Shown here: in pieces, positions 19,484 through 47,148 of the stretch
How positions within the stretch are numbered: position 1 is the stretch's first letter
Layout of the letters: the number at the start of each line of letters is the position of its first letter
Assembly (NCBI GenBank): GCA_963761975.1
Contig: CAVXIR010000002.1
Span: forward strand, 1,477,912-1,541,911
Source of the DNA: Vicinamibacterales bacterium
GTDB lineage: Bacteria; Acidobacteriota; Vicinamibacteria; Vicinamibacterales; JAMQPK01
DNA: 64,000 nt
Direction: 5' to 3'
Notes under the pieces: model-generated
The model's input: only the letters and a program-made list of their open reading frames with translations
What the model was told of the DNA's origin: nothing
The model's database searches: none
Program-made: the position numbers and the translations under genes

Positions 19484-19570
19484 GCGGAAGTGGCGGAACT
19501 GGCAGACGCGCTAGCCTCAGGAGCTAGTGGGCGCAAGCTCATCGGGGTTCAAATCCCCGCTTCCGCACCA
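19484..19570 (+). tRNA. tRNA-Leu (anticodon CAG), CCA encoded
   Basis: Acceptor stem GCGGAAG/CTTCCGC. Anticodon stem CTAGC/GCTAG with loop CTCAGGA. Long variable arm. T-arm CGGGG-TTCAAAT-CCCCG. 3' ACCA. Confidence 0.95.
19514..19570 (+). repeat. attL core (57 bp, 3' part of tRNA-Leu from the anticodon loop to CCA)
   Basis: Identical by eye to 42041-42097. Its last 20 nt also recur at 47806-47825. Confidence 0.85.
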
Positions 19571-19850
19571 TCAACCAAACCCGTCGTGACGGCTCTTTCT
19601 GAGGTTTCTCGTCCGCTTTTGATATAGGTAGCGGGGGCGCTCCACGTTCGCTTGTGCGACGTGTGTGCGACTTTGCTGTAGGCACGAGAGAGCCGTCTGA
19701 TCAGGAATCAGAAATTACACCTCAGCTAGACGCGTCTTCGCGAGGAGGACCGTTTGGCATATGCTGCGGGCCTCTGGGTTGGCAAAAATACGGCCAGCTA
19801 GGATTCGGCGCTCCCGAACCCACGAGACGGCGAAATCCTGGACCAACGCG

Positions 19851-21866
19851 ATGCCTGACCACAACTATTTTGCGAATTTGATCTGGCAGATTGCCGACCT
19901 GCTGCGCGGCCCATATCGTCCGCCTCAGTACGAGCGGGTCATGTTGCCCATGACGGTCTTACGCCGGTTCGACTGTGTGCTCGCGCCCAACAAGGCCAAG
20001 GTGGTGACCGAATACGAACGATCCAAGGACAAGTTCAAGGGCGATGCTCTTGACGCAAGGCTGAATAAGGCTGCCGGCCACCGCTTCCACAATCATTCGG
20101 CACTCGATTTCGAAAGGCTCAAGGGCGACCCGGATCACATCGCGCAGCACTTGGTGAGCTACATAAAGGGATTCTCCGGTAACGTGCGTCGGATCTTCGA
20201 GTACTTCGAATTCGAGAATGAGATCGAGAAGATGCGAGAGGCGAACATCCTATATCTCGTTGTCTCAAAGTTCTGCGACGTGGATCTGACTCCGAGCGAT
20301 GATCCCACGACGGGCGTTCCGAACTATCAGATGGGGCTTATCTTCGAAAACCTCATCCGCCGCTTCAACGAACTCGCAAACGAGACGGCGGGCGATCACT
20401 TCACACCGCGAGAAGTTATCCGTCTTATGGTGAGCGTCCTTTTCATGCACGACGACAAGCTGCTCGCCACTCCCGGCACCATCCGCAAGCTCCTAGACCC
20501 CGCCTGCGGTACGGGTGGCATGCTGGCTGAGGCCCAAAATTACCTGCGCGAGCACCACAGCGCTGCACGTCTTTACGTTTACGGACAGGACTACAACAAG
20601 CGCGCATTCGCTACCGCGGCCTCCGACATGCTGATGAAGCAGGTCGACCGCAACGAAGGCGAAAACAAGATCCGTTTCGGCGACAGCCTGATCAGCGATC
20701 CGAAAGAAGGCGACCAGTTCGCGGGGGAAACCTTCGACTACTTTCTCACCAACCCGCCCTTTGGTGTGGACTGGAAAAAGCAGCAGAAGGAGATCGAGCG
20801 CGAACACGACAAGCTCGGGTTCACGGGCCGCTTCGGCGCTGGATTGCCGCGCATAAACGACGGCTCGCTTCTCTTCCTGCAGCACATGATCGCCAAGTTT
20901 GAACCGGTGCGCCCGGCTGAGCACAAGCACGGCTCGCGCCTGGCGATCGTGTTCTCGGGCTCGCCCCTTTTCACGGGCGGCGCCGGTTCAGGCGAGAGCG
21001 ACATCCGGAAATGGATCATCGAGAACGATTGGCTCGAGGCTGTTATCGCCCTTCCGGAGCAGATGTTCTACAACACAGGAATCGGCACCTACGTTTGGAT
21101 TGTCACCAATCACAAGGAGAAGCGCCGCAAGGGCCGGATCCAGCTTCTCGACGCGCGCGAGTTCTGGACGGCTGGTGGGAGCCAGGAGAGCAAGCGCAGT
21201 CTGGGTGACAAGCGTCGACACATTACTGGGGCTCAAATCGATGACATCGTACGGCTCTACGGTCGCCTAGAAGAGACCGAGCGCTCGAAGACGTTCGACA
21301 CTGCCGATTTTGGTTACACAAGGGTGACCGTCGAGCGTCCGCTGCGCCTGCGTTACAGAATGACCACCGATGGCAAGGCGCGTTTCCTCGACGCCTGTCC
21401 GCACTTGCTCGACGACATACAGGACATTGACACGGTGCTCGGCCGTGAGCCTTTATGCGATTGGAACGCTGCCTGGGTGCGCATCCAGGAAGTACTGCGT
21501 GCTCGTCGCTCGCGTTGGAAGGCGACCGAACTGAAGCTTTTCCGCAGCGTCTTCACCGAGAAGGCCCCAGAGGCCGAGCCCGTCCTGAGAGGCGGGCGCG
21601 GCGAGGGTTACGAACCCGATGCCGAACTGCGGGACTTCGAGAATGTGCCACTCAAGACCGACATCGACACCTATTTCGAGCGGGAGGTGCGCCCCCACGT
21701 GCTCGACGCGTGGATAGATCGTAGTAAGGACAAGCTAGGCTACGAGATCAACTTCAACCGGCAGTTCTATCTGTATACGCCCCCGCGTCCGCTGGAGGCG
21801 ATCGATGCAGATCTGAAGAATGCGGAGGAAGAGATCGTGCGGTTATTGCGGGAGGTGACGAAGTGA
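19851..21866 (+). CDS. hsdM: type I restriction-modification system, N6-adenine DNA methyltransferase subunit M
   Basis: ATG at 19851. HsdM N-terminal region (IWQIADLLRG). SAM motif LDPACGTGGML. Catalytic FLTNPPFG. Confidence 0.95.
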   Translation: MPDHNYFANLIWQIADLLRGPYRPPQYERVMLPMTVLRRFDCVLAPNKAKVVTEYERSKDKFKGDALDARLNKAAGHRFHNHSALDFERLKGDPDHIAQHLVSYIKGFSGNVRRIFEYFEFENEIEKMREANILYLVVSKFCDVDLTPSDDPTTGVPNYQMGLIFENLIRRFNELANETAGDHFTPREVIRLMVSVLFMHDDKLLATPGTIRKLLDPACGTGGMLAEAQNYLREHHSAARLYVYGQDYNKRAFATAASDMLMKQVDRNEGENKIRFGDSLISDPKEGDQFAGETFDYFLTNPPFGVDWKKQQKEIEREHDKLGFTGRFGAGLPRINDGSLLFLQHMIAKFEPVRPAEHKHGSRLAIVFSGSPLFTGGAGSGESDIRKWIIENDWLEAVIALPEQMFYNTGIGTYVWIVTNHKEKRRKGRIQLLDAREFWTAGGSQESKRSLGDKRRHITGAQIDDIVRLYGRLEETERSKTFDTADFGYTRVTVERPLRLRYRMTTDGKARFLDACPHLLDDIQDIDTVLGREPLCDWNAAWVRIQEVLRARRSRWKATELKLFRSVFTEKAPEAEPVLRGGRGEGYEPDAELRDFENVPLKTDIDTYFEREVRPHVLDAWIDRSKDKLGYEINFNRQFYLYTPPRPLEAIDADLKNAEEEIVRLLREVTK

Positions 21867-23152
21867 ACGAGCGGACCGACCTTCCGTCGGGGTGGGCCAA
21901 TCCGCCCGTGTACGCACGCTATTCCGTGCAGCTTGGGAAGATGCTTGATGAAAAACGAATCATCGGAACGCACCTCGCTCCATACCTGAGAAATGTGGAC
22001 GTGCAGTGGGATGGAGTGAACACCCACGATCTACCATTGATGGATTTCACCGAGGAGGATCGCGAGCGCTACAACCTGCGAAAAGGTGACCTACTGGTCT
22101 GTGAAGGTGGCGAAGTGGGGCGTACGGCTGTATGGAAAGGCGAACTGGCAGAATGCTTTTTTCAGAAGGCGATCCACCGTTTGAGGCCGACAAGCGATCG
22201 CGATGACCCTCGATTCTTTCGATACTTTATGCGGATGTCGGTCGATCGCGGGGATTTTGCTCTAAGCACGGCAAGCACTATCCAGCACCTCACAGCTGAA
22301 AAGCTTCGCGTGGTCAGATACCCCGCTCCGCCGGCGGGTCAACAGCGGGCGATCGCCGACTACCTCGACCGCGAGACCGCGAGGCTAGATGCGCTAGTCG
22401 CGGCAAAGGAGCGCCTGCTTGGATTCTTGGCCGAGAAGCGCCGGGTGCTTATCACCCGCGCCGTAACCCGCGGTCTCGAGACGAACTTTCCACTCCGCAA
22501 TTCGGGGAATCCATGGCTGGGCGAGATTCCGGCGCACTGGCAAAGCGGGTGTATTCGAAGGTTCGCAACGATGAAGACGGGGCATACGCCAGATCGAAAC
22601 CAAGCCGAGTACTGGCGCGATTGCGATATCCCTTGGTTCACACTAGCGGATGTGTGGCAATTGCGCGACGACCGTGAGATTTATTTGCGTGAAACGAAGG
22701 AGCGCATCAGCCAACTTGGGCTTGCTAATTCTGCCGCTGAGCTTCTGCCCACAGGAACCGTCGTGTTCTCTCGCACGGCTTCGATCGGCTTCTCCGGTAT
22801 CATGCCGCAACCTATGGCAACAACGCAGGACTTTTGGAACTGGATACCGGGTCCCAAGCTCTCCTCTGAGTACTTGCTTTACGTGTTTCGAGCTATGCGA
22901 CCGGAGTTCGAGCGTCTCGCATTCGGATCCACGCATCGGACAATCTATCAACCGGAGGCAGCAGGTTTGAGACTCGCGATCCCTCCGCTTACCGAGCAGC
23001 ACGAAATCGTCCGACACATTAGTACATCAACGGCTCACCTCGACGAGATCATTTCCGCGACAGAGCGGACTATCTCCCTCATTCAGGAGCGCCGTACGGC
23101 CCTTGTCGTCGCTGCCGTGACAGGTCAGATTGACGTGGCGGCAGCGGCATGA
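21863..23152 (+). CDS. hsdS: type I restriction-modification system, specificity subunit S
   Basis: GTGA overlap with hsdM. Two-TRD architecture with a central conserved helix (QQRAIADYLDRETARLDAL) and a C-terminal repeat (EQHEIVRHIST...LIQERRTALV). Confidence 0.9.
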   Translation: MNERTDLPSGWANPPVYARYSVQLGKMLDEKRIIGTHLAPYLRNVDVQWDGVNTHDLPLMDFTEEDRERYNLRKGDLLVCEGGEVGRTAVWKGELAECFFQKAIHRLRPTSDRDDPRFFRYFMRMSVDRGDFALSTASTIQHLTAEKLRVVRYPAPPAGQQRAIADYLDRETARLDALVAAKERLLGFLAEKRRVLITRAVTRGLETNFPLRNSGNPWLGEIPAHWQSGCIRRFATMKTGHTPDRNQAEYWRDCDIPWFTLADVWQLRDDREIYLRETKERISQLGLANSAAELLPTGTVVFSRTASIGFSGIMPQPMATTQDFWNWIPGPKLSSEYLLYVFRAMRPEFERLAFGSTHRTIYQPEAAGLRLAIPPLTEQHEIVRHISTSTAHLDEIISATERTISLIQERRTALVVAAVTGQIDVAAAA

Positions 23153-24402
23153 TTGTGACGCGCTGCAAGCTCGCGAACGTGCGCGCCATAGAAGCGGCCG
23201 AGTTTCGTTTCCATGCGGGTTTCAACCTCATCGTCGGCGTCAACGGTGTCGGCAAGACGAGCGTGCTCGATGCGTTGGGCGTGTGCCTTTCCGCAGTAAC
23301 GAAGCAGGTCAACAGCCTTCGGGGTCGGATCCACTCCCTCACGCACGATGACATCCGAATAGGCGCCAAAGCGTTAACAATAGAATGCAGTGTCAGCATC
23401 GGCGAGCGGGAAAGCACATACCTACTACACAAGCCCCGAGAGACAAGCGTTCCGCAACGCATGAAGGCGGGGATACCGCGAGAACAGGTCCACGACACAC
23501 CCGAGAGGGCGGAGTTCCTCGGCGAGGCGCCGGCCCCAGTGCCGGGCACGGAACCCGGCGGCCGCCCATTGGCCGTGCTGTTCTCTACCAATCGGGCTGT
23601 GCCGTCCGAGCGGGCGCCGGGACAGAGTGTGGCCGCCGGCGGGATCGCTGCCGCCTTCGCCGATGCCTTCGCGAAGCGGGAGCTGCGCCTCGGTGAGTTC
23701 GGGGCGTGGATGCGCGTGCAAGAGTCGCTTCGGATGGAGCGGCGCGCTGCGGCACACGCGCTCGCGGCATTCGGCGATGCTGTGACGCGTTTCCTCCCCG
23801 ACTACAGCAATCTGAGATTGGCTGGTGGCGACGGGCGGCAGCTCTGGATCGACAGAGGCAGCACGGCGATTCCGGTCCGACAACTCTCAGACGGTGAGCG
23901 GGGTACCCTCGCGCTGGTGTTAGACCTGACCCGCAGGTTGGCACAAGCCAACCCTGGACTCGCTGATCCGGCGGCCGAGGCCGGCGCGATTGTGTTGATC
24001 GATGAGGTCGATCTGCACTTGCACCCGAAGTGGCAGCGGCAGATCGTCCACAGCCTGGCCGCAACCTTTCCGCTTTGCCAGTTCATCGCGACGACCCATT
24101 CCCCACAAGTAATCGGAGAAGTCGAGCCCGAGCGGATACAAATCATCGCGGACAGTCAAGTTTACTCGCCGACGCACTCCTACGGCGTGGATTCAAGTCG
24201 TGTGTTAGAAGAGGTGATGCACTCCGACCCTAGGGCAAAAGAGGTCGGGGACTTGCTTTTGGAGATCTCCCACGTAATTGACAAACGGCAGTTCGTTCGT
24301 GCGCGGGAATTGCTGGCCGAGATCGTCGCGCAACTCGGTGAGACCGATCCCGAGGTGACTCGGATCAGCACTCTTCTCGATTTCGTAGAGGGGAAGGAAT
24401 GA
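23149..24402 (+). CDS. ptuA: ABC/AAA_15-21-type ATPase, Septu PtuA-like
   Basis: ATGA overlap with hsdS. Walker A GVNGVGKTS, LSDGERG signature-like motif, Walker B VLIDEVDLHLHP, H-loop TTHSPQV. Confidence 0.65.
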   Translation: MIVTRCKLANVRAIEAAEFRFHAGFNLIVGVNGVGKTSVLDALGVCLSAVTKQVNSLRGRIHSLTHDDIRIGAKALTIECSVSIGERESTYLLHKPRETSVPQRMKAGIPREQVHDTPERAEFLGEAPAPVPGTEPGGRPLAVLFSTNRAVPSERAPGQSVAAGGIAAAFADAFAKRELRLGEFGAWMRVQESLRMERRAAAHALAAFGDAVTRFLPDYSNLRLAGGDGRQLWIDRGSTAIPVRQLSDGERGTLALVLDLTRRLAQANPGLADPAAEAGAIVLIDEVDLHLHPKWQRQIVHSLAATFPLCQFIATTHSPQVIGEVEPERIQIIADSQVYSPTHSYGVDSSRVLEEVMHSDPRAKEVGDLLLEISHVIDKRQFVRARELLAEIVAQLGETDPEVTRISTLLDFVEGKE

Positions 24403-25049
24403 GGGCGATCGTTAAGGGTGCAGAGCCCGCGAGCCTCGCTACGCATCGGCAGGCACCTCATTGCGACTACGACAATTACGACGATAAGGCTGCGCTGAGA
24501 TATGCCCTTGTGGGCGAGCAGCGCGGGATCTGCTGCTACTGCATGGGGCGCATCCGCAACCACCCAACCATGATGAAAGTCGAGCACTGGCGGTGCCAGA
24601 GTAACCATGAAACAGAGCAGCTCAATTACCTCAACCTACTCGGCGCGTGCCCAGGTGGGGACGGGAAGCCACAGCACCTCCAGCACTGTGACACGAGGAA
24701 AGCCGACCGCGATATCAAATGGAACCCAGCCGATCCCTCACACTACATCGAAACGCGACTGCGCTATGAACTCGACGGAAGCATTCAATCCGACGACGCC
24801 GACTTCGACACGCAGCTTAACGACCTGCTGAATCTCAACCTCGCAATTCTCAGGAACAATCGGAAGGGCGTCCTCGCTGCCGTTCTCCAGTGGTGGCGGC
24901 ATGAGAAAGCGAGGATTGGTGGGGCGGTCCCCCGCGATCGCTTCGAGCGCGAGCGCGCGCGACGAACGAGGGGGGCTGGAGAACTCGAGCCGTTCAGTCA
25001 GGTCGCGGTTTGGTGGCTCGAGCAGCGGCTGGCGAGAATGAACGTATGA
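24399..25049 (+). CDS. ptuB: HNH-type nuclease-like protein (TIGR02646-like), Septu PtuB-like
   Basis: ATGA overlaps on both sides. GICCYCMGRI...KVEHWRCQS...LNYLNLLGACPG...HCDTRKA matches the Cys/His/Asn pattern of that family. Confidence 0.65.
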   Translation: MRAIVKGAEPASLATHRQAPHCDYDNYDDKAALRYALVGEQRGICCYCMGRIRNHPTMMKVEHWRCQSNHETEQLNYLNLLGACPGGDGKPQHLQHCDTRKADRDIKWNPADPSHYIETRLRYELDGSIQSDDADFDTQLNDLLNLNLAILRNNRKGVLAAVLQWWRHEKARIGGAVPRDRFERERARRTRGAGELEPFSQVAVWWLEQRLARMNV

Positions 25050-28000
25050 AGGATACCCGCCATTCCGAAGGGGCCTTCGAGACTGTCATCGAAGCCAACC
25101 TGCTGGGACATGGATACACTCGAATCGACCGTGAGACGTTCGACCGGGAGCGCGCGATTTTCCCGGAAACCGTCTTGGACTTCATTCGCAAGACGCAGCC
25201 CGGCGAGTGGGCGAAGCTGGAGGCCCTACACGGCGCCAGAACGGGCGAGCAAGTGCTCGCGGACCTGTGCAAGTGGATGGACACGAATGGGTCATTGTCC
25301 ACGTTGCGGCACGGGTTCAAGTGTTACGGCCGGCCGCTTCGGATCGCTTTCTTCAAGGCGGCACATGAGCTAAATCAGGAGCTTGAGGCCCGATATGCGG
25401 CGAACTGCTTGGGGCTGACCCGCCAGCTCCGCTTTTCAACCCGGTCAGAGAAGTCACTCGATGTTACGCTCAGCTTGAACGGCATTCCTATCGCGACAGT
25501 CGAGCTAAAGAACCATCTTACAGGCCAGACCGTGGAGGATGCTCTCAGCCAATACAAGCGCGACCGCGACCCCCGAGAGACGATCTTCGAGTTTAAGCGG
25601 CGCACCCTCGTGCACTTCGCCGTCGATACCGAGGCCGTGCGCATGACGACGCGACTGGCCGGTAACGCGACACACTTTCTGCCCTTCGACAGAGGTAGTG
25701 AAGGCGGCGCCGGGAATCCACCGGATCCTGCTGGTCGCACGTACCGCACGGGCTATCTCTGGGAGGAGGCGCTGCAACGCGACAGCCTGCTCGACATCCT
25801 GGCCCGCTTCATCCACCTTCAGATCGAAGAGAAGCGTGACGACCAAGGTCGCAAGGTGAAAGTCGAGAGCATGATTTTTCCGCGGTACCACCAACTTGAT
25901 GCCGTGAGACGGCTGGTCGACGCGGCTCGCACCGAGGGTGTGGGGCATAACTACCTCGTCGAGCACTCGGCCGGCAGCGGCAAGAGTAATACGATTGGCT
26001 GGCTCGCGCACCGGCTGGCCTCCCTGCATGACGCCGTCAATCAGCGCGTCTTTAATAGCGTGATCGTCGTCACGGACCGCGTTGTATTGGACCAACAGCT
26101 CCAGGACACGATTTACCAGTTCGAGCACAAGAGAGGGGTAGTACAGAAGATCGACGAGCGATCCCGACAGCTCGCAGAGGCCCTAGAGAACGCAGTGCCG
26201 GTCATCATCACCACGCTGCAAAAGTTCCCCTTCGTCTCGCGCCAGTTGCTGAAGATGGCCGAAGAGCGCGGCGAGCATGGGAGCGGAACGCTGCCCACAC
26301 GGCGCTGTGCGGTGATCGTTGACGAGGCCCACAGCTCGCAGAGTGGTGAAGCGGCGACGGATCTCAAGGAGGTTCTCGGCGGCGAGGAATTGCTCGAAGA
26401 GGCACGCAAGCGCGCCGCCGAAGAGCAACGCGATAACCTGGAGGAGCTCTTCCGCAGCATGGCGAAGCGCGGGCGACAGTCGAACCTGAGCTTCTTCGCG
26501 TTCACCGCCACACCTAAGCACAAGACGCTCGCCGTGTTCGGCCGTAGCGGCGAGCCGATCCACCGCTACACCATGCGTCAAGCTATCGAGGAAGGCTTCA
26601 TCCTCGATGTGCTCAAGCACTACACGAGCTACGCAACCTACTACAAGCTGCTAAGGGCCTCCGAGGACGATCCCAATGTCGAGCGCAAGAAGGCAGCAAT
26701 AGCACTCGCGCGCTTTTTACGGCTGCACCCGCACAACATCGCGCAGAAGACGGAGGTCATGGTCGAGCACTTCCAGGCCGTTACCCGCCACAAAATTGGC
26801 GGCAGGGCGAAGGCGATGGCCGTCACGGGATCGCGGTTAGAGGCGGTGCGGTACAAGCAGAGCTTCGACCGTTACATCAAGGAGAAGGGTTATGCCATCA
26901 AGACGCTCGTCGCTTTTTCTGGCGCGGTGCAGGATGACAAAATTCCGGATATGGCATACACCGAAGAGAAAATGAATCTCGGCATCCGGGAGAAGGAGCT
27001 TCCTGAGAAATTCGCGACACAGGAATATCAGGTGTTGCTCGTTGCCGAGAAGTACCAGACTGGCTTCGACCAGCCCCTTCTGCACACGATGTACGTTGAC
27101 AAGCGCCTGGCGGGAATTCAAGCCGTGCAGACCCTCTCACGGCTCAACCGGACGCATCCTCTCAAGGAGGATACGTTCGTGCTCGATTTCGTGAACGACC
27201 GGGAAGAGATCCGTGAGGCGTTTAAGGTGTACTACGAAGGGGCGGTCATGGGCGAGGAGGTCGATCCCGCCCGGATGTACGCAATTGAGGGCGAGCTCGA
27301 CGCATCGGGCGTTTATCTGGACGAGGAAGTGGAGCGGTTCTGCGCTGTGTACTTCAAGCCGAAGCAGCGGCAAAGCCCACAGGATCACCAGGGGATGAAC
27401 GCGGCGCTCGATCCAGCCGTCTCGCGGTTCGGCGTCTTGCAGAATGAGAAGGAGGATGAGGCAGAGCTATGGCGAGGTAAGGTGCAGGCGTTCCGGAACT
27501 TGTACGGCTTCCTGAGTCAGATCATTCCGTACCAGGACTCCGACCTTGAACGGCTGTTTGTATTCCTTCGCCATCTGGCGGCGAAGTTGCCGCGCCGCCG
27601 GAGCGGCCCCGCTTACCAGTTCGACGACGAGGTACGCCTTGAGTATTACCGTCTGCAGAAGATCAGTGAGGGCTCGATTTCCCTCAAGAATGGCTATGCG
27701 CAGCCACTGGACGGCCCGAAAGAGGTAGGGTCCGGCTTCGTCCGTGAGGATGCAGTGCCGCTCTCGCAATTGATCGAGGTAGTCAACGAGCGCTTTGGTA
27801 CTGACTTCAACCAAGCAGACCAACTCTTCTTCGATCAAATCGTTGAAGCCGCGGTGACCGACGACGGATTACGTCAGGCAGCTGCTGTAAATCCGGAGGA
27901 GAAGTTTGAACTGGTATTTCGAAATCTGTTGGAGCAGCTGTTCGTCGAACGCATGGATCAGAATGAGGAGATTTTCGTCCGGTATATGAACGACGCATCT

Positions 28001-28087
28001 TTCAGGGAGATCGTGAGTAGGTGGATGGCATCGGAAGCATACCAACGCCTAAGCGCCAATTCAGAAGCAACTTACCGTAAGGTGTGA
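25046..28087 (+). CDS. hsdR: type I restriction endonuclease subunit R
   Basis: ATG at 25046. N-terminal nuclease region. Helicase motif I HSAGSGKSNT and motif II VIVDEAHSSQSG. Later motifs FTATP, LLVAEKYQTGFDQP and QTLSRLNR. Confidence 0.95.
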   Translation: MKDTRHSEGAFETVIEANLLGHGYTRIDRETFDRERAIFPETVLDFIRKTQPGEWAKLEALHGARTGEQVLADLCKWMDTNGSLSTLRHGFKCYGRPLRIAFFKAAHELNQELEARYAANCLGLTRQLRFSTRSEKSLDVTLSLNGIPIATVELKNHLTGQTVEDALSQYKRDRDPRETIFEFKRRTLVHFAVDTEAVRMTTRLAGNATHFLPFDRGSEGGAGNPPDPAGRTYRTGYLWEEALQRDSLLDILARFIHLQIEEKRDDQGRKVKVESMIFPRYHQLDAVRRLVDAARTEGVGHNYLVEHSAGSGKSNTIGWLAHRLASLHDAVNQRVFNSVIVVTDRVVLDQQLQDTIYQFEHKRGVVQKIDERSRQLAEALENAVPVIITTLQKFPFVSRQLLKMAEERGEHGSGTLPTRRCAVIVDEAHSSQSGEAATDLKEVLGGEELLEEARKRAAEEQRDNLEELFRSMAKRGRQSNLSFFAFTATPKHKTLAVFGRSGEPIHRYTMRQAIEEGFILDVLKHYTSYATYYKLLRASEDDPNVERKKAAIALARFLRLHPHNIAQKTEVMVEHFQAVTRHKIGGRAKAMAVTGSRLEAVRYKQSFDRYIKEKGYAIKTLVAFSGAVQDDKIPDMAYTEEKMNLGIREKELPEKFATQEYQVLLVAEKYQTGFDQPLLHTMYVDKRLAGIQAVQTLSRLNRTHPLKEDTFVLDFVNDREEIREAFKVYYEGAVMGEEVDPARMYAIEGELDASGVYLDEEVERFCAVYFKPKQRQSPQDHQGMNAALDPAVSRFGVLQNEKEDEAELWRGKVQAFRNLYGFLSQIIPYQDSDLERLFVFLRHLAAKLPRRRSGPAYQFDDEVRLEYYRLQKISEGSISLKNGYAQPLDGPKEVGSGFVREDAVPLSQLIEVVNERFGTDFNQADQLFFDQIVEAAVTDDGLRQAAAVNPEEKFELVFRNLLEQLFVERMDQNEEIFVRYMNDASFREIVSRWMASEAYQRLSANSEATYRKV

Positions 28088-28156: not shown

Positions 28157-29365
28157 TTAGCTGGTTACGTGGACAGATCGTGCGGCCTCGAATCGTTCGA
28201 GCACCGCCTGTCTGCGTATTCCACTCGTTGCGAGATATCGGCTGGTTGTGACGACGTTCGTGTGTCCGACCCAGTCGCTGACGTCGTGCAGCGAAACGCC
28301 TGGCGTCTCCAAAAGCCGCGAGGCGAACTCCCGTCTGAGATCATGAAAGTGCAAGCCAACGATCCCGGCCATGCGCCGGCATTCATCCCAATCTTCGCGA
28401 ATCGACTCGCGCTTCTCCCCGATTTCGTCGCCGAATACGTATGAGCCAGCTCCAAACTCATTTCCGGAGGGATCGTGCTTCCTAGTCTCAAGCACTGCTC
28501 TCAGTCGCGAGGTAAGCGGAACCGCGCGTGCTTCATTCGTCTTCGTCTTGCCTGCCGGTAGCAGGATGATGTTCTCCTCGCGTTTAACTTGACCCCATTG
28601 GAGCGAGAGCAGTTCGCCGAGACGACAGCCTGTTTCAAGCGCCGCAACGATGATGGCCTTCAAATCGGGTGTCGCGTTTGCTAGAAGCTTCTCCTCCTCA
28701 CCGGCTTCCAGCCGCCGCGATCGAGGCGCCTCGGCCGATGAGTTCAGCTTCACGACGGTCACGCCATGCCGCTTAAAGGGTGTCGATTCTGTATAGCCCT
28801 CGGCGATCGCCCATGAGAACAGATGCCGCAGTCGCGACAGCAGCCGATTTGTGCCGACCTCGCCGCCCTTCGCGCGCGGCTTGTGGACACGCGACGCCTT
28901 CCTGAGTTCCTCGACGTCAGCCTTCGTGATCTCGGTAAGCGGACGTTCCTCGAATTTCACTTTGCCGAATGGTCCAGCGGGAATCTCGATGTTACGCAGT
29001 CGCCGAACCATCAGCTCCATCATGACGCGACCACCTTCCCGGCGCGTCGGAATCCTGACGTGCTGCTCGAGGTAGATGTCGGCGAGACGACCGAACGTCA
29101 TCGGACCGGCTACAGTCTGTTCTACCAGCTGACCCGCAAATTTGCCCGATCGAATCTGACTACGAAAGTTGTCTCGGTACCCCTCAGCTTCGGTCTTGCC
29201 CATCACGTACTCGGGCGGCTTGCCTGCAGCCTCGTTCAGTTGGAATCGGTACTCGCGGCCTCGGAATTTATAGAAGAAGTGCCAGGGATGACTGCACTTC
29301 GACCACTTCCTCCAGCCACATGGGCAGCGTTTCCGGATATTGTGGCAACGATGGGTATGTCTCAT
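28157..29365 (-). CDS. int: tyrosine-type site-specific integrase
   Basis: 402 aa. Contains ETGCRLGELLSL (catalytic Arg), HFHDLRREFASRL (HxxR) and GHTNVVTTSRYL (Tyr). Confidence 0.9.
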   Translation of the reverse strand: MRHTHRCHNIRKRCPCGWRKWSKCSHPWHFFYKFRGREYRFQLNEAAGKPPEYVMGKTEAEGYRDNFRSQIRSGKFAGQLVEQTVAGPMTFGRLADIYLEQHVRIPTRREGGRVMMELMVRRLRNIEIPAGPFGKVKFEERPLTEITKADVEELRKASRVHKPRAKGGEVGTNRLLSRLRHLFSWAIAEGYTESTPFKRHGVTVVKLNSSAEAPRSRRLEAGEEEKLLANATPDLKAIIVAALETGCRLGELLSLQWGQVKREENIILLPAGKTKTNEARAVPLTSRLRAVLETRKHDPSGNEFGAGSYVFGDEIGEKRESIREDWDECRRMAGIVGLHFHDLRREFASRLLETPGVSLHDVSDWVGHTNVVTTSRYLATSGIRRQAVLERFEAARSVHVTS

Positions 29366-38328: not shown

Positions 38329-39093
38329 TTAACGCTTAGATTCCTTGCGTATCCGTGCATCAACCAGTTTTTTCAGCTCACCTGAACAGAATCGATGGAT
38401 GCGCTCGCAACAGTCCGACATCGTTGTAAGAGCGGTGGCTTGGCGGTGCGTGATGCGACTAAGGTCCTGCTGATGTCCATGCATCCCTCGCATGAACAAC
38501 AGTCGATCTCGAAATGCCTTTGAACCCAATGCAAACACTCCCGCAAACGGTCCAGAGAATGCGTCGGGCAATGTCCTAAGCGTCTCTAAACCGTCGTCGT
38601 CGCCGACAGGCATGTCTGCGACCAACGTGCGGTAACCATGGATGAACAACGTCGTGTTGGTCGCGTATTGGTCAGCAATTTCCTCGACTTCCATCACAAA
38701 CGGATGGATCGTTCTCGCCACCTGCGATTCGATCCGCTGTTTTTCACTGAAATAGTTCGGGTGGCCAGAGACCGGAAACCCCTTGATTGCTTGGACTATC
38801 GCCTGCTCGATTCTGAGCACCAGTGGCACAGCGCTGTGGGTCAAATCCTTCAGTTTCTCTGGCGCTGCATGAACATTAACCGCATGATCAATTGTTCCCA
38901 GTTCGGCTTGACCCTTTTGGAAATCAGCTTCCAGCTTGCGATGCTTCGCGCCTTCAGCTTCCCGCGCCATTTCTCGACGCCGTCGTCGTTGTTCCCGCCA
39001 ACTGACGGCGTGGAAGGACAGGTAATATGCGCCGCCGACTACAGTGGTAATGATGACCAATACAGAAGCCCACCAATTCACATCTTGGCCCAC
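38329..39093 (-). CDS. membrane-anchored hypothetical protein
   Basis: GTG at 39093 after GGAGAG. One N-terminal TM (WWASVLVIITTVVGGAYYLSF), then an Arg-rich stretch and a soluble domain of about 200 aa. Confidence 0.6.
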   Translation of the reverse strand: MGQDVNWWASVLVIITTVVGGAYYLSFHAVSWREQRRRRREMAREAEGAKHRKLEADFQKGQAELGTIDHAVNVHAAPEKLKDLTHSAVPLVLRIEQAIVQAIKGFPVSGHPNYFSEKQRIESQVARTIHPFVMEVEEIADQYATNTTLFIHGYRTLVADMPVGDDDGLETLRTLPDAFSGPFAGVFALGSKAFRDRLLFMRGMHGHQQDLSRITHRQATALTTMSDCCERIHRFCSGELKKLVDARIRKESKR

Positions 39094-39307
39094 AGGTTAC
39101 TCTCCAGCCTGACGCAGGCCTACCGTGAAGCTCGCCAACATTAATCGTCACCATCGCGAACCCAGGGCCGCGACATTACCACGCCCCTTCGTCGGCAATC
39201 CTACAAGATAGCCCGCGCGGGGAGCCTAGAACGGCCTTTTGTTTATGCTCCCTCAGCGAACGACGTCGCTTGGATGGACGAGCAAGTCCTTAAGAAAGTA
39301 AAACAAC

Positions 39308-40447
39308 TCAGGCAAGGTTCGCCAATGCCTGTAGTGATGGAGGAAGCTTCTGAAGCCGAACGGACGTCCATTCCAGATCTTCGTAACCGGCGTCGGTACG
39401 ACGGGCCGTGCCTTCTACTTCGGCTGTGAGGGTCACTTGCTTTTCACGGGTCTCTACGCGCGACTCGGACATCAGGCCTGCAATCAACGATATTGGACCG
39501 CGCGGCTCGACGATTTCACCGACTCTCACCTGTGGGGATGGAGGGTAAACGGTCACGTCGACAGAGGCGCGGAAATGTGCTGTGACCGAAACACTTAGCG
39601 TCACACTTTCGCCGGGATCGACCAGGCCGAACGTTGGTGAGACATCTACATTCTGAATTTCGATGCGTTCAAGATCTGAAACCGACCGCAATCTCTCCGA
39701 AAAGCCGGTAAATTCGGATATCGGTGCGCGAAGATTATCCTTAATGTATGTTGTTAGGCGTTGCTCGTCTGCCGTCACCACTGTCGATGCCTGCTGTTGG
39801 GATGTGTCGATCAGATTTCGAATGACGAGGTCAAATTCACTGCGGATCGTCTTGACCGTGTCTTCTAACGACATCACTCTTAGATTGACCTCTGCAACAC
39901 GAGCGACCTCTTCCGTCCCCTTGTAATCGCCGTCAGCGGAGACGATTACCGCGACTTCATCGTGGTCGCTCTGCTGTAGGTGTTCGAGGACTGACTGATA
40001 GATCAACACATCGCCCAAACCGTCCCCGTCCGCATCAAACGGCCGTTGACGATTCAGGCGCATCACAAATATATCTTCTAGTGAGCGAGTGGTCATTGGC
40101 ACCGTCTGAAGCTCGAAGTCAGCTACGATCTGCGCAACCTGGTCGCGATAGCTCGCTAACACATCATGTGTGGGTGGTGCAACGGGGGCGGCCAACCTGG
40201 GACGTCCAGCTCGCGAGAGAAACTGATTGAGGGGGCGCGGCGAATTGATAAATTGGGTGGCGGTTTGCTCGTATTCACGTTTGAACTGCGCTTCAAGCTC
40301 CTTCTCGACAGCCGACGGCAAATACAGAGTGGCATCCGGCAGGCGTTCTCTCACAAGTGTCAACAAGTTTCGTAGCTGGGTCGAAATCTTTGGCCATTGT
40401 GAAGCGGTCAGTGGCTCGCTGTCGAGGTACACTCTGGTGAACGGCAT
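39308..40447 (-). CDS. PIN-like (DUF4935-type) domain protein with unknown C-terminal domain
   Basis: N-terminal VYLDSEPL, then acidic positions (EKELE, FDADGDG, IVSADGDY), as in PIN-like DUF4935 proteins. The C-terminal ~180 aa are beta-rich. Confidence 0.55.
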   Translation of the reverse strand: MPFTRVYLDSEPLTASQWPKISTQLRNLLTLVRERLPDATLYLPSAVEKELEAQFKREYEQTATQFINSPRPLNQFLSRAGRPRLAAPVAPPTHDVLASYRDQVAQIVADFELQTVPMTTRSLEDIFVMRLNRQRPFDADGDGLGDVLIYQSVLEHLQQSDHDEVAVIVSADGDYKGTEEVARVAEVNLRVMSLEDTVKTIRSEFDLVIRNLIDTSQQQASTVVTADEQRLTTYIKDNLRAPISEFTGFSERLRSVSDLERIEIQNVDVSPTFGLVDPGESVTLSVSVTAHFRASVDVTVYPPSPQVRVGEIVEPRGPISLIAGLMSESRVETREKQVTLTAEVEGTARRTDAGYEDLEWTSVRLQKLPPSLQALANLA

Positions 40448-40494
40448 ATTCAGTTCCTCAACGAATCATCCAGGGGCGCCATTACGCAGCAGGA

Positions 40495-40671
40495 TTAGCG
40501 AGCAATTCGGAAAATCGCAAAGCGCTGCCCGGAGGACTTGAACGTTTTCAGCAAAGCTGCCTTGAAACCGCCGCGCTGTCTGGGCCGCACTAGTCGCCAG
40601 CCCTTGCCGGTGGGCATTTGCACGCCACGCTTGATGTTTGACGACCGCAGTTTGATTCGACCTCTCGCCAT
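40495..40671 (-). CDS. possible small, very basic protein (58 aa; below the ORF-track cutoff)
   Basis: ATG at 40671 lies 5 nt after AAAGGAGGA. Sequence MARGRIKLRSSNIKRGVQMPTGKGWRLVRPRQRGGFKAALLKTFKSSGQRFAIFRIAR. Ends 47 nt upstream of the PIN-like gene. Confidence 0.3.
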   Translation of the reverse strand: MARGRIKLRSSNIKRGVQMPTGKGWRLVRPRQRGGFKAALLKTFKSSGQRFAIFRIAR

Positions 40672-40823
40672 CGCGTCCTCCTTTGGCCTACATCGTTTTT
40701 AGGCGTGAACGCGTGATGAGTGATGTTTCGGTTCAACTCGTGAATACCCGTAGCATTGTGGGTACACAAAATGGCATGCACCATTTGTAATCATTGCGAC
40801 ACCAACCTCGTCGATTCGGCTGA

Positions 40824-41741
40824 ATGATAAAAACACCAACCGTGTTCATCCTCGGCGCAGGCGCCAGTGTGCCTTATGGTTTTCCAACTGGTCGTCAGCT
40901 CGTTCAGAGAATCATCGCCGGTCTCGATCCGGAGGAGAAACTGCACAACCTGCTCACGCCGCATCCTTGCGCATTCAAGGCAGAAGACCTCGTTAGGTTT
41001 CGTAGTGAACTGCGACTATCACGTCGGTCATCAGTCGATAGGTTTTTGGAAGATCGACCGGAATTCATGGCTATCGGCAAGGCTGCAATTGCCGTCGAAC
41101 TGTTGCCAATCGAGGTAGACGAATGTCTGTTGCGGGCGAGTGAGGTCGAGGATTGGTACACGTATCTATTCGACATGATGATGAGGGAGGACTTCGACCG
41201 CAATGATCTCGGCGTTATTACGTTTAACTTTGACCGTTCATTCGAGCGCGCATTGTTTCAGACACTCAAATCTGCATATAACCTCAACGACGTAGATTGC
41301 TCGGCCCTGTGTCACAAGGTGCCAGTTATTCACTTTCACGGCGATCTCGGTGAGCCGTCGTGGTACGTTGATTCATCGGGTCCACGGCGCGGCGCTCGAG
41401 ACTACGCCTGCGAGGTGCACATTCCCGATCGCAATGTCATCAAATATTGTGCGGAGCGCATCCGTCTCGGCGTTGAAGGACCCGGCGATGATATCGTTGA
41501 GGATGCTCGGGCGATGCTTCTCCGCGCAGAGTGCGTCTGTTTCATTGGGTTTGGGTACGATCCGCGTTCGCTCGAACGCCTTCAGGTTGCAGATATCATG
41601 CGCGGAAAGGTGATTCGCGGGACCGCGCTGGGCCTCTCGTCTGGTGAGCGAGGACCTGTTGAAAGGAAATTCGACAAAATTCACCTGTATGACGCGAATG
41701 CTCACAAATTCCTACGGGATACGGATGTGGTGCATCAGTAA
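40824..41741 (+). CDS. short SIR2-like (SIR2_2-type) protein
   Basis: FILGAGASVPYGFPTGRQL (Rossmann start), ITFNFDRSFERAL (TNYD-like, Asn135), VIHFHGDLG (His172) and CFIGFGYDPRSL. Confidence 0.65.
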   Translation: MIKTPTVFILGAGASVPYGFPTGRQLVQRIIAGLDPEEKLHNLLTPHPCAFKAEDLVRFRSELRLSRRSSVDRFLEDRPEFMAIGKAAIAVELLPIEVDECLLRASEVEDWYTYLFDMMMREDFDRNDLGVITFNFDRSFERALFQTLKSAYNLNDVDCSALCHKVPVIHFHGDLGEPSWYVDSSGPRRGARDYACEVHIPDRNVIKYCAERIRLGVEGPGDDIVEDARAMLLRAECVCFIGFGYDPRSLERLQVADIMRGKVIRGTALGLSSGERGPVERKFDKIHLYDANAHKFLRDTDVVHQ

Positions 41742-42040: not shown

Positions 42041-42097
42041 GCCTCAGGAGCTAGTGGGCGCAAGCTCATCGGGGTTCAAATCCCCGCTTCCGCACCA
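42041..42097 (+). repeat. attR of the first island (57-bp copy of the tRNA-Leu 3' end)
   Basis: gcctcaggagctagtgggcgcaagctcatcggggttcaaatccccgcttccgcacca is identical to 19514-19570. Confidence 0.85.
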
Positions 42098-43233: not shown

Positions 43234-45906
43234 TCACGGCACGGGAATCCGATACAGGTTGCGCTGCACGCTCTCGCGCGTGAAGGCGTATGTATCAGCA
43301 GTCCGGCCGGGCACCACATCCGTTGACGCGATCACCCGCACTCCCGGCGTCTTCACAATCTCCTGCTCGGATGGGAGCCCATCGATGACGCTCTCGGGCA
43401 GGGGACGGCCCGGCGTCACCGGAAAGACGAAGGTCTTGTCCCTGCTCGCCGGAAAATTCTGCACGAACACATGCTTTCCGTCCCGAGACCACCGCATCAG
43501 TGATCTGCCCGCGATTCGTGTCGGAAGCGGAGCGCCGCCGTCGACGCGGAAAATCAAGGCACCTCCGCCCGGGCCTAAGACCAGCCAGTTGCGGTCTGGG
43601 GATTCACCCATGATGCCAATGATCGACGGGTCGAAGGCTTTCCTCAGCCCGCTTCCGTCTTCCCGAACGCGGTAGAGGAACGCGGAGGTCCCCTCGACGC
43701 TGTGAAAAAAGACTTCACCGGTCGCGCCGAACACGGGGCGTGCGCCTTCGATGTTGGGAATCTGCTGCGGCGGCGAGCGGCGGTCGAGCGGCGCCAGCCA
43801 CAAGCGAAACTTACCAGTGTTGTCAGGCGACGCGACAACGACCTGACGGCCGTCCGGGGAAATGTCGTAGCCTGCCGTGGGAGGATTCCCTGCCATTGAA
43901 ACGGCAAGGCCCGGCAGCAAGGGCTCGCTGCGTCCGGAATCGAGTTCCGCCACCCACAATTCGCTCGCGGCTCCTTTTCGCACCTGATAGAGCAGCCGCT
44001 TCCCATCGGGCGTGAATTTGGGCGCGAAGGCGTAACCTTCCAGCGAGATTTGCCGATCGCCTCCCTCCTCGTGCAGCCAGACGGAACTCTGTGTCAATCC
44101 GACGGCCGTGATGAACGAGCGGCCGTCGGGCGCCATGGCGAGTCCTTCTTCTTCGGTCGGTCCCGACGTAATCTGCTCGGGCTGTCCGTCGGGGAAGCGT
44201 TGACGCCAGATGTGGAAGGCCCCGCCGGAGTCCGAGCTGAAGTACATCCACGCCCCGTCGGGCGACCATGCGGCAAACGTACATTGGCCAGTCGGCGGGC
44301 CGACCTGCTGCCCTGCCGAACTGCCATCCAGCGGCGCCAGGCGGCACCGCACAATAGTTCCCCGCTCGTTCATCTCCACCAGCAGCATCCATTTGCCGTC
44401 GGGCGAGGGATAGGAGCGATGGGCCATGCCGCGCTCATGGGGCGGCACATAGAGATTACGCGACCCGGCCCGGCTCTCATCGGAGGTCACGATCGCCATA
44501 TGCCGGCGCTGATCTTTGATCTCAGAAAACAGCAGCTTCGATTTGTCGATCCACGCCAGCCCAGAGGCGTTCGGAAGCCACAGGCGCGGTTCTCCTCCCA
44601 GCACGGGCACGGCCCACATGTCCCAAAGCTCCCCTACAACCGAGTACGCGATCCGCGACCCGTCCGGTGAAAAGACCGGGCTCATCTTCGTGCGATTATC
44701 GCGGGTGAGCTGCACCGGCTCGCCGCTGGGCAGCATCTTCACGTAGACTTGCCCGTTCGTAGTGAAGCTCGAAGGGCCGCGGATGAAGGTGAGCATGCGG
44801 CCGTCCGGCGAGAGCGCCGGCTGGACGGCCGAGTCGGGCAGGTTCGTGATTTGCACCCATTCGGCGCGCGCCGGGGCGGAAGCAGGCTGCTTCAGCAGCC
44901 ACCCGGCCAGGCCCGCTGCGGCAACTACCAGCCCCACAACTCCCACTGTGATCGCGACAAGGCGTCGAGGCGGCCGCGCGGGCGGACGAACGGCCGTGGC
45001 TGCCCCGACTTGCCCCGAGAGTCTGCCCGACTCGGACTCCTGCTTCAGCTCTTCGAGAGCGAGCTTGATATCGGCGATGCCCTGGGCCCGGCGTTCCGGA
45101 TCCTTGCGCAGGCAACGGGCGATGATTTTGTCCAGTTCCGTCGGCACGCCCGCTGACATCTCGCTCGCGGCCTTCGGCTCGGTGTGCATGATGGCGCCAA
45201 GCGTCGAGATTTTGTTCGTGCCCTCGAAGGCGCGCCGCCCGGTGACCATCTCGTAAAGAACCGAGCCGAACGAAAAAATGTCAGAGCGGCCATCTACCTT
45301 CCTGCCCTCGGCCTGCTCGGGAGACATGTAGGCCACAGTGCCCAGGATGGCGCCCTCTTCTGTTTGAGGTCTTTCCTGCGCCGCCATGGTCGCCGTAGCG
45401 CCTTCCGGATCGTCGTCGATGACTTCAGTCAGCTTGGCCAGGCCGAAGTCGAGCAATTTCACACGGCCATCGTCGGCCACGATGATGTTGGCCGGCTTCA
45501 GATCGCGGTGGACGATTCCGGCGGCGTGGGCGCGCGCCAGTGCGTCGGCGATCTGAATTCCATACTTCAATGCATCTTTTAGACTCAGTCCACTTTTCCC
45601 GATGTATTGGTCGAGCGTCTTGCCTGGCACGAACTCCATGGCGATGAAGTCGGTGGGACCATCAGGCAGATTTGCGCTGGCGATGTCGTAAATGTGGACG
45701 ATGCCGGGGTGATTCAGGGCGGAAGCCGATTTCGCCTCTTGCACAAAGCGGCGCTTACGGTCGGGGCTGGCAGTGGCATCCGGGCGCAACACCTTGATGG
45801 CGACGGCACGGTCGAGATGGGTATCGAACGCACGATACACCACGCCCATGCCGCCCTCGCCGAGCTTGGAATCGATCCGGTAATGGCCTAGCGTCTGGCC
45901 GATCAT
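43234..45906 (-). CDS. Ser/Thr protein kinase fused to a TolB-like (PD40/WD40-like) beta-propeller
   Basis: GEGGMGVVYRA, AIKVL, HRDLKPANI, DFGLAK and YMSPEQ. Then a TM segment, then repeated SPDG...(L/I)(A/T)(F/Y) propeller motifs. Confidence 0.9.
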   Translation of the reverse strand: MIGQTLGHYRIDSKLGEGGMGVVYRAFDTHLDRAVAIKVLRPDATASPDRKRRFVQEAKSASALNHPGIVHIYDIASANLPDGPTDFIAMEFVPGKTLDQYIGKSGLSLKDALKYGIQIADALARAHAAGIVHRDLKPANIIVADDGRVKLLDFGLAKLTEVIDDDPEGATATMAAQERPQTEEGAILGTVAYMSPEQAEGRKVDGRSDIFSFGSVLYEMVTGRRAFEGTNKISTLGAIMHTEPKAASEMSAGVPTELDKIIARCLRKDPERRAQGIADIKLALEELKQESESGRLSGQVGAATAVRPPARPPRRLVAITVGVVGLVVAAAGLAGWLLKQPASAPARAEWVQITNLPDSAVQPALSPDGRMLTFIRGPSSFTTNGQVYVKMLPSGEPVQLTRDNRTKMSPVFSPDGSRIAYSVVGELWDMWAVPVLGGEPRLWLPNASGLAWIDKSKLLFSEIKDQRRHMAIVTSDESRAGSRNLYVPPHERGMAHRSYPSPDGKWMLLVEMNERGTIVRCRLAPLDGSSAGQQVGPPTGQCTFAAWSPDGAWMYFSSDSGGAFHIWRQRFPDGQPEQITSGPTEEEGLAMAPDGRSFITAVGLTQSSVWLHEEGGDRQISLEGYAFAPKFTPDGKRLLYQVRKGAASELWVAELDSGRSEPLLPGLAVSMAGNPPTAGYDISPDGRQVVVASPDNTGKFRLWLAPLDRRSPPQQIPNIEGARPVFGATGEVFFHSVEGTSAFLYRVREDGSGLRKAFDPSIIGIMGESPDRNWLVLGPGGGALIFRVDGGAPLPTRIAGRSLMRWSRDGKHVFVQNFPASRDKTFVFPVTPGRPLPESVIDGLPSEQEIVKTPGVRVIASTDVVPGRTADTYAFTRESVQRNLYRIPVP

Positions 45907-47088: not shown

Positions 47089-47148
47089 GTCGTTCGACGT
47101 GGGCGGATACGCTGGAACATCCGCCCGTCGCGACTACACGGGAGAATT

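Follow-up and report, generated by a model that had tools for sequence, protein, structure and literature searches.

A standalone SIR2-fold protein and a PIN_12 protein as probable independent cargo at the attR end of a tRNA-Leu island

What is the relationship between a gene for a short SIR2-like protein and the genes that face it from the opposite strand at the end of a genomic island: do they form one defense system, or are they neighbors that arrived separately? The question is raised by positions 38329-41741 of a 64,000-nucleotide stretch of contig CAVXIR010000002.1 from a Vicinamibacterales bacterium (the window, which here means the whole stretch analyzed). This segment lies at the attR end of a tRNA-Leu island and encodes a 305-aa SIR2-fold protein, a 379-aa protein of the PIN_12 (formerly DUF4935) family, and two further open reading frames (ORFs) of 254 and 58 codons (Table 1). 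An original prediction made from this DNA took the arrangement for a new configuration in which a SIR2 NADase is combined with a PIN nuclease, a membrane effector, or both. The comparative data contradict that prediction, and we consider it probable, though by no means certain, that the segment is a set of independently acquired cargo genes, namely a standalone SIR2 gene, a separate PIN_12 gene, and two orphan ORFs. What remains is an uncharacterized, widespread, and partner-less family of SIR2 proteins of about 300 residues.

The absence of conserved linkage carries this reading. We assembled 84 SIR2-family loci, comprising four exact look-ups of close relatives and 80 GTDB contigs chosen at one genome per species, and then four metagenomic look-ups and 12 viral contigs, for 100 loci in total. 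Searching the 84 loci (1.03 Mb) by tblastn with the PIN, 254-aa, and 58-aa proteins gave 0 matches, and searching them with the DUF429 protein and the other window neighbors gave nothing but one helix-turn-helix (HTH) match. A hidden Markov model (HMM) of the PIN family found nothing significant among the six-frame ORFs of the 84 loci (best E=0.033) and had 0 matches in the 16 further loci, 12 of which are viral. By BLAST or HMM, none of the 100 SIR2-family loci has a relative of the PIN, 254-aa, or 58-aa protein nearby, and the co-occurrence of SIR2 homologues with homologues of the PIN or 254-aa protein, which the original prediction had proposed as a check, was therefore not seen. Clustering of the neighbors likewise gave no conserved SIR2 partner, the largest real cluster being present at 5 of the 84 loci, and the Pfam content of 69 upstream and 57 downstream neighbors is highly heterogeneous; neither the Pfam nor the PADLOC scans of the neighbors brought out a SIR2-PIN linkage. 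A neighbor cluster found at 18 loci was rejected as a partner, since it only mirrors the SIR2 gene on the antisense strand.

Of the relatives whose contigs could be used, the two nearest, at 72% and 67% identity, are likewise without relatives of the PIN, 254-aa, and 58-aa proteins; the 72%-identical SIR2 gene adjoins a ParE toxin-antitoxin pair, and the 67%-identical one adjoins a methyltransferase-restriction endonuclease (MTase-REase) gene and a UvrD helicase gene. The PIN family was found in none of the viral contigs and, with either the protein or the family consensus as query, in none of the plasmids. The SIR2 gene lies on the strand opposite the PIN, 254-aa, and 58-aa ORFs, and we found no SIR2-PIN system in the literature, where DUF4935 genes are described as "usually expressed as mono-cistrons" (Matelska et al. 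2017, PMC5499597). Adjacency inside a defense island is not evidence of a system, and the claim of a new SIR2, PIN, and membrane protein configuration is not supported in view of the unlinked loci, the lack of a conserved neighbor, and the reported monocistronic habit of DUF4935.

Table 1. Features of the window discussed in the text
Feature	Coordinates	Strand	Basis or details
attL	19514..19570	+	57-bp repeat inside tRNA-Leu(CAG) 19484-19570
Type I restriction-modification operon (hsdM, hsdS, hsdR)	19761..28087	+	Septu-like PtuA/PtuB pair between hsdS and hsdR
Septu-like PtuA/PtuB pair	23149-25049		between hsdS and hsdR
Island tyrosine integrase	28157..29365	-	PF00589, E=4.6e-23
DUF429 protein	36842-37645	-	PADLOC candidate family PDC-S44, E=3.8e-11
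C-protein-like Xre HTH gene	37704-37949	+	PADLOC 'Control_protein', E=4e-22
254-aa ORF (GTG start 39093)	38329..39093	-	N-terminal transmembrane helix, residues 9-27
PIN_12 (DUF4935) family protein, 379 aa	39308..40447	-	Pfam PF16289, AlphaFold2, Foldseek
58-aa ORF	40495..40671	-	isoelectric point (pI) 12, 17 Lys+Arg, no Asp/Glu
Divergent intergenic region, 58-aa ORF to SIR2 gene	40672..40823	.	152 bp; 376 bp from PIN start
Standalone short SIR2-fold protein, 305 aa	40824..41741	+	ORF list, AlphaFold2, Foldseek, PADLOC
His170-Phe171-His172 codons	41331-41339	+	
attR	42041..42097	+	57-bp direct repeat of tRNA-Leu 3' part; begins 299 bp past SIR2 stop codon

The 305-aa protein carries the motifs GAGAS (residues 11-15), TFNFDRSFE (133-141), HFHG (170-173), and FIGFGY (240-245), and has a helical insert at about residues 23-125. 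Its AlphaFold2 model, built with a 45-member alignment as input, has a predicted local distance difference test (pLDDT) score of 93.8 and a predicted template modeling (pTM) score of 0.92. In a Foldseek search of the PDB the top matches were all sirtuins or defense SIR2 proteins (probability 1.0, E down to 2.4e-6), and they include Sir2Af2, Sir2Tm, E. coli SIR2-HerA, KomC, and CobB. The PADLOC SIR2 model PDLC04087 also matches the protein (E=3.4e-8), and a profile search of the PDB sequences with the SIR2 family ranked KomC first (E=3.6e-5). The protein misses the threshold of Pfam SIR2_2 (PF13289) with 17.4 bits and E=0.005 against a gathering cutoff of 24.5, and the SIR2 fold in the model is unambiguous despite this sub-threshold score. 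There is no CxxC motif in the protein and it has no PF02146 match, so the Cys4 of the sirtuin Zn-ribbon is lacking, and neither NCBIfam nor PHROGs gave a family assignment. Much of what had been predicted for this protein withstood the analysis: it has a SIR2 fold with intact GAGAS, TFNFD, and HxHG motifs of the nicotinamide adenine dinucleotide (NAD) site, and no sensor or effector domain is fused to it, as the AlphaFold2 model and the Foldseek matches show the SIR2 fold of a single domain to span its whole length. The SIR2_2 hallmarks attributed to it stand as far as motif type and fold are concerned, but the Pfam SIR2_2 score does not bear them out.

Proteins of this kind form a coherent family. 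A homologue search with the 305-aa protein gave at least 629 protein clusters, almost all of 295-340 aa; the aligned members measure 297-338 aa, and all but two of the 120 relatives listed are shorter than 350 aa. Only about 15 of these 120 have a precomputed PF13289 match, which makes the family a divergent branch of SIR2_2. Invariant in the 45-member alignment are GAGAS, S70, D72, F74, E97, W111, T133, N135, R138, S139, E141, and G242, and T133, N135, and D137 are invariant or nearly so in the family. His172 had been named as a further hallmark; it does occupy the canonical catalytic position, but that position varies in the family: of 131 members, 93 have His there and 35 have Tyr. In contrast, His170, which precedes it by two residues on the same strand, is kept in 129 of the 131. 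KomC His146 aligns with His172 of the window protein and ThsA Asn112 aligns with its Asn135. Taken as a reading of the alignment, this pattern suggests a shifted or dual-His active site. Two CxxC motifs occur in 0 of 134 family members, and the family is thus without the sirtuin Zn-ribbon. We found no description of a standalone short SIR2 family in the literature.

The family is patchy and rare in its distribution, which spans archaea (methanogens included), bacteria of the candidate phyla radiation (CPR), and many other bacterial phyla. Across 185,579 species genomes, relatives were confirmed at no fewer than 472 of at least 599 matched stretches. Among 2.9 million viral contigs of IMG/VR the family occurs on 12, tblastn of the SIR2 protein against 50,697 cultured-phage records gave no match, the predicted viral structure library BFVD returned only giant-virus sirtuins, and plasmids held only distant relatives (22-25% identity). 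The closer relatives, at 40% identity or more, are consistently cargo of mobile or defense loci. One such locus (L001) holds an MTase-REase, a GajB-like UvrD helicase, the SIR2 gene, a Prim-Pol, and a TIR protein, and another (L093) a Type I restriction-modification (R-M) system, an HNH protein, the SIR2 gene, and an integrase; four more elements (L003, L004, L090, and L091), all satellite-like, carry a small terminase subunit (Terminase_4), MT-A70, and a serine recombinase. In the confirmed phages the SIR2-family gene lies between a DNA methyltransferase and a terminase or portal block. In the broad set of relatives, PADLOC models match very roughly 13-15% of the immediate neighbors, a proportion read from lists of top families and not from distinct proteins.

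Further details of these settings were noted. In the phage contigs L098 (2472-7295), L099, L101 (5791-11280), and L102 the SIR2 gene is in the moron region, where it is flanked by a ParB-fused or standalone DNA methyltransferase and by small or large terminase genes. In about 38 of 80 SIR2 relatives an ORF in the same direction lies no more than 100 bp upstream, but the families of these ORFs are unrelated to one another; two of the ORFs match Nuc_deoxyrib_tr (PF05014, E=3e-4), whose fold is akin to that of nucleotide-sensing domains.

The 379-aa protein matches PF16289 with 48.2 bits (E=2e-12; cutoff 32), and in its AlphaFold2 model (pLDDT 93.9) residues 1-192 form a VapC-like PIN domain, 194-238 a long helix, and 251-365 a beta-sheet of four long strands. 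Foldseek relates the N-terminal domain to VapC (probability 0.93-0.97, target TM-score (TMt) 0.5-0.6) and found no significant match for the C-terminal domain. The acidic PIN residues D9, E50, D146, and D172 are all present; among 45 PIN-family members conservation reaches 90% or more for D9 and E50 and is complete for D146 and D172. An exhaustive HMMER search gave 373 family representatives, mostly full length (360-400 aa), and at 38% identity or less to any of them the window protein is a divergent member. The PIN-like, DUF4935-type N-terminus and the beta-rich C-terminus had both been anticipated, and the profile and structure searches that were proposed at the time agree with the SIR2 fold of the one protein and the PIN fold of the other. 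Two metagenome contigs hold near-identical N-terminal PIN_12-homologue fragments of about 100 aa (L087 5680-6300 and L088 2640-3293), each joined at its upstream end to unrelated sequence and with an ORF in the opposite orientation behind it; judged from their sequences, these fragments look like disrupted pseudogenes.

The 58-aa ORF has AAGGAGG five bases ahead of its ATG and is separated by 47 bp from the PIN gene downstream. GGAGG occurs at the corresponding position in only 2 of 77 comparable island ORFs. The ORF is very basic and has a strong Shine-Dalgarno site, as had been noted at the outset; it is absent from the public annotations and the public protein collection, and it is a putative gene only. 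It has no match in Pfam, PADLOC, NCBIfam, PHROGs, or the PDB sequences, and no counterpart was found upstream of PIN homologues at the few loci available. The 254-aa ORF lies 214 bp past the PIN gene on the downstream side. Its GTG start is preceded by GGAGAG at a distance of six bases, and the ORF gave no match in the same five libraries or in plasmids. The public calls start it at the internal ATG 38970, which yields a 213-aa protein of a singleton cluster. The description of this ORF as a single-transmembrane protein thus holds for the GTG start but not for the ATG start, with which there is no transmembrane helix. In the stretch that separates the SIR2 gene from the 58-aa ORF, scans for promoter and terminator consensus sequences gave nothing above shuffled expectation, and there is no Rfam match and only weak repeats.

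How might such a SIR2 protein work? By analogy with related proteins, NADase activity, a role in defense, oligomerization, and self-regulation may be proposed for it. Most likely it acts alone, probably as a homo-oligomer like other defense SIR2 proteins, and when triggered it would cleave NAD+ and bring about abortive infection. GAGAS, N135/D137, and H170/H172 would make up the active site, and the helical insert of about 100 residues, with its invariant S70, D72, F74, E97, and W111, may serve in autoinhibition or another built-in control or may bind the trigger. The PIN_12 protein would be a separate and normally monocistronic metal-dependent nuclease, and the 254-aa and 58-aa ORFs would be lineage-specific orphans. 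A bolder proposal, which we regard as tentative, is that the family of about 300 aa is an autonomous single-protein immune system and the smallest known SIR2 defense module, that its insert senses a phage cue or small molecule directly, that His170 and not position 172 drives catalysis, and that phages, satellite-like elements, and integrative islands have spread it across bacteria and archaea.

Several points weigh against reading the segment as independent cargo with a standalone immune SIR2 protein. The reverse test, in which none of five PIN-family loci had a SIR2, 254-aa, or 58-aa relative, is a weak one, covering five short or fragmentary loci and one paper. A four-sequence PIN alignment yielded only four metagenome loci, two of which are N-terminal fragments, and one PIN homologue (P0154) sits on a contig of 1.8 kb; a word-indexed search with the PIN protein returned nothing but the query, and a profile added a single protein. 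The SIR2, PIN, and 254-aa ORFs share an unusual G+C content at third codon positions (GC3) of 0.56-0.58, as does the D5 primase of the island, and may for this reason have arrived together; a lineage-specific functional coupling of the three may exist. The orphan status of the 254-aa and 58-aa ORFs applies to the libraries tried, as distinct from large protein databases. From homology and context the SIR2 protein is a putative NADase with a putative role in defense, and since 35 of the 131 members have Tyr at position 172, the chemistry of the family may not be that of the classical SIR2 NADases. In the broader family, at 30-38% identity, housekeeping genes such as LpxB, Dxr, and GidA are frequent neighbors, and a BLAST screen for markers of mobile elements and R-M systems, a crude and insensitive one, flagged only about four loci beyond the query sources.

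Some of these points lend themselves to other explanations. That the SIR2 protein, the PIN protein, the membrane protein, and the small basic ORF make up one multi-gene defense system, recently assembled in this lineage and joining a NADase to a nuclease, a membrane effector, or both, would accord with the adjacency of the genes, with the 152/376-bp intergenic region that the divergent pair shares, with the similar low G+C and the common GC3 of the SIR2, PIN, and 254-aa ORFs, and with their place in a real defense island where no known SIR2 partner is present. It has to contend, however, with 100 SIR2 loci lacking a PIN, 254-aa, or 58-aa relative, with the different neighbors of the 72%- and 67%-identical SIR2 relatives, with PIN loci that lack SIR2, with the report that DUF4935 genes are monocistronic (PMC5499597), and with the 214-bp gap between the PIN and 254-aa genes. 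No shared operator-like repeat stands out, and no such system was found in the literature, so that we give this explanation a slim chance. Somewhat better placed, though still rather unlikely, is a VapBC-like toxin-antitoxin or regulator-nuclease pair made of the 58-aa ORF and the PIN_12 protein and independent of SIR2, which is compatible with our preferred reading of the rest of the segment. The AAGGAGG site is strong and of a kind rare among the island ORFs (2/77), the order is antitoxin-first with a 47-bp gap, and the PIN protein keeps its acidic residues and a VapC-like fold. But at one PIN homologue (L086), where only 136 bp lie upstream, there is no such ORF, and at another (L106) the upstream ORF is unrelated; moreover, the 58-aa ORF belongs to no recognizable DNA-binding or antitoxin family, has no acidic residues, and is uncalled in the public annotations, and the monocistronic habit reported for the DUF4935 family (PMC5499597) does not favor a pair.

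Two further explanations concern the SIR2 family itself. An ordinary sirtuin-type deacylase or ADP-ribosyltransferase with a cellular role, in place of an immune NADase, is favored by the Foldseek top matches, which include the deacetylases Sir2Af2, Sir2Tm, and CobB, and the many housekeeping neighbors in the broad family and the variable canonical His, which hints at non-standard chemistry, point the same way. The lack of a Zn-ribbon, the SIR2_2-type motifs (TxNxDxxxE and GAGxS), the patchy and rare occurrence across archaea, CPR, and many bacterial phyla, the carriage on phages, satellite-like elements, and R-M islands, and the failure of NCBIfam or any housekeeping family to claim the protein all argue against it, and we think it improbable. 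It is also conceivable that the family is primarily a phage or satellite gene for host takeover or counter-defense, consuming NAD-derived signals for example, and that its presence in the island reflects phage-like ancestry. The occurrence of the gene on 12 viral contigs, in the moron region and adjacent to methyltransferase and terminase genes, the satellite-like elements with Terminase_4, and the D5-type primase of the island, which has the same codon composition, would fit such an origin. On the other hand, 12 loci are few for 2.9 million viral contigs, the 50,697 cultured-phage records gave none, most family members are in chromosomal contexts without phage genes, and a viral location does not imply counter-defense because prophage-borne defense genes are common; we rate this explanation as very unlikely. 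Independently acquired cargo with a standalone SIR2 gene is the reading that we retain.

The setting of the segment as cargo of a tRNA-Leu island with defense systems was part of the original prediction and is upheld by the att repeats and the defense genes. The sole tRNA gene in the window is tRNA-Leu(CAG), whose last 57 bases recur exactly at the attR site and thereby delimit an island of 22.5 kb. G+C is 53.9% in the segment, 57.8% in the island, and 62% in both flanks, so the end of the island is indeed AT-richer than its core, and positions 41221-41280 are at 41.7%, close to the earlier hand count of about 42%. The four ORFs of 305, 58, 379, and 254 aa are in the ORF list at the positions and on the strands first given for them, and the codons assigned to Asn135 (41226-41228) and His172 (41337-41339) and the 376-bp spacer proved exact. 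GC3 values of about 0.56-0.58 are common to the SIR2, PIN, and 254-aa ORFs, the HTH gene, and the D5 primase (38329-41741; 32287-33720). The Type I R-M genes differ, with about 0.74, near the value of the chromosomal kinase (0.76). Thus, the island is compositionally mosaic, and the R-M/Septu block may have an origin different from that of the island backbone.

Other cargo accompanies the segment. In NCBIfam the ATPase is PtuA-like (NF041760, E=1.5e-65) and the HNH protein PtuB-like (NF041761, E=2e-23), both scoring below the equivalog cutoffs, and their reading frames overlap or abut. The island also carries a D5-type primase-helicase. The DUF429 gene and the HTH gene are divergently paired and may be a further small defense or regulated module of the island (36842-37949); the public gene calls omit the HTH_3 gene (37704-37949) and have, in its place, a 42-aa ORF on the antisense strand.

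Beyond attR, on the SIR2 side and about 1.1 kb past the repeat, lies a Ser/Thr protein kinase gene (43234-45906). In three related elements, with a SIR2 protein 44% identical to that of the window, the SIR2 gene is also flanked by a Ser/Thr kinase gene, intact or fragmentary (L003 3544-5712, L004 1419-2198, and L090 5433-5753). This recurrent flank could reflect a shared insertion neighborhood or merely kinase-rich genomes. According to the public gene calls, a second tyrosine-recombinase gene (289 aa), at about 46220-47089 as converted from L085 15397-16266, and several short kinase fragments are present just beyond the island on the attR side. The second recombinase and the kinase fragments hint at older, decayed insertions at the attR-side site.

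How do these proteins compare with those of known systems? The DUF4935/PIN_12 proteins described previously (PMC5499597) have an N-terminal PIN domain and an alpha/beta C-terminal region, and the window protein, which differs little from them, has the same architecture with the acidic residues kept. VapC (PDB 4xgr and 6a7v) is a structural match to its N-terminal domain, and a small ORF lies upstream here too; VapC, however, is about 130 aa in length and has a conserved cognate antitoxin, whereas the window protein has 379 aa, an extra domain, and an upstream ORF that is not conserved.

For the SIR2 protein, the nearest counterpart by PDB profile search is KomC of the Kongming system (PDB 8zsf), likewise a short single-domain SIR2 protein (264 aa), whose GAGxS, TxNYD, and HG motifs align with those of the window protein. 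The two are only about 15% identical, and a larger helical insert and the additional near-invariant His170 set the window family apart. KomC, moreover, acts together with KomB in a complex, and its trigger is deoxyinosine triphosphate (dITP) made through KomA, whereas Pfam revealed neither KomA (a deaminase) nor KomB (a non-canonical nucleoside triphosphate pyrophosphatase) near the window SIR2 gene or its relatives; the ORFs that flank it in the window belong by Pfam to PIN_12, no family, DUF429, and HTH only. SIR2-HerA (GAO_19 or Nezha; PDB 8su9, 8sub, and 8j4u) gave the best PADLOC match and the highest Foldseek TM-scores (query TM-score (TMq) of about 0.5). Its SIR2 protein, an NAD+-depleting abortive-infection effector of about 400 aa, needs the adjacent HerA ATPase, and no HerA was found in the window neighborhood or in the top 25 Pfam families listed for 126 neighbors of the relatives. 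ThsA of Thoeris and DSR1/DSR2 share a SIR2_2-type catalytic core with the window protein. ThsA has a fused SLOG sensor domain and a TIR partner, ThsB, whereas the window protein is single-domain and has no TIR gene among its window neighbors by Pfam or PADLOC; the DSR proteins exceed 1000 aa and have sensor domains, as against 305 aa here. SPARSA offers only a weak Aga_SIR2 match limited to the GAGAS region (E=0.001), and no Argonaute gene is nearby. The original prediction was right, then, that the known partners (SLOG/TIR, HerA, Argonaute, KomA/B, or a large DSR sensor) are missing near the gene.

Few effectors of prokaryotic immunity have been reused as widely as the SIR2 NADases. To our knowledge, every characterized defense SIR2 protein is controlled by a fused sensor or a partner, be it SLOG/TIR, HerA, Argonaute, KomB, or a DSR sensor. 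A SIR2 protein without a conserved partner, as the family described here appears to be, would need a different, built-in means of staying silent until infection, and working out how it is controlled would extend the rules by which such effectors are regulated.

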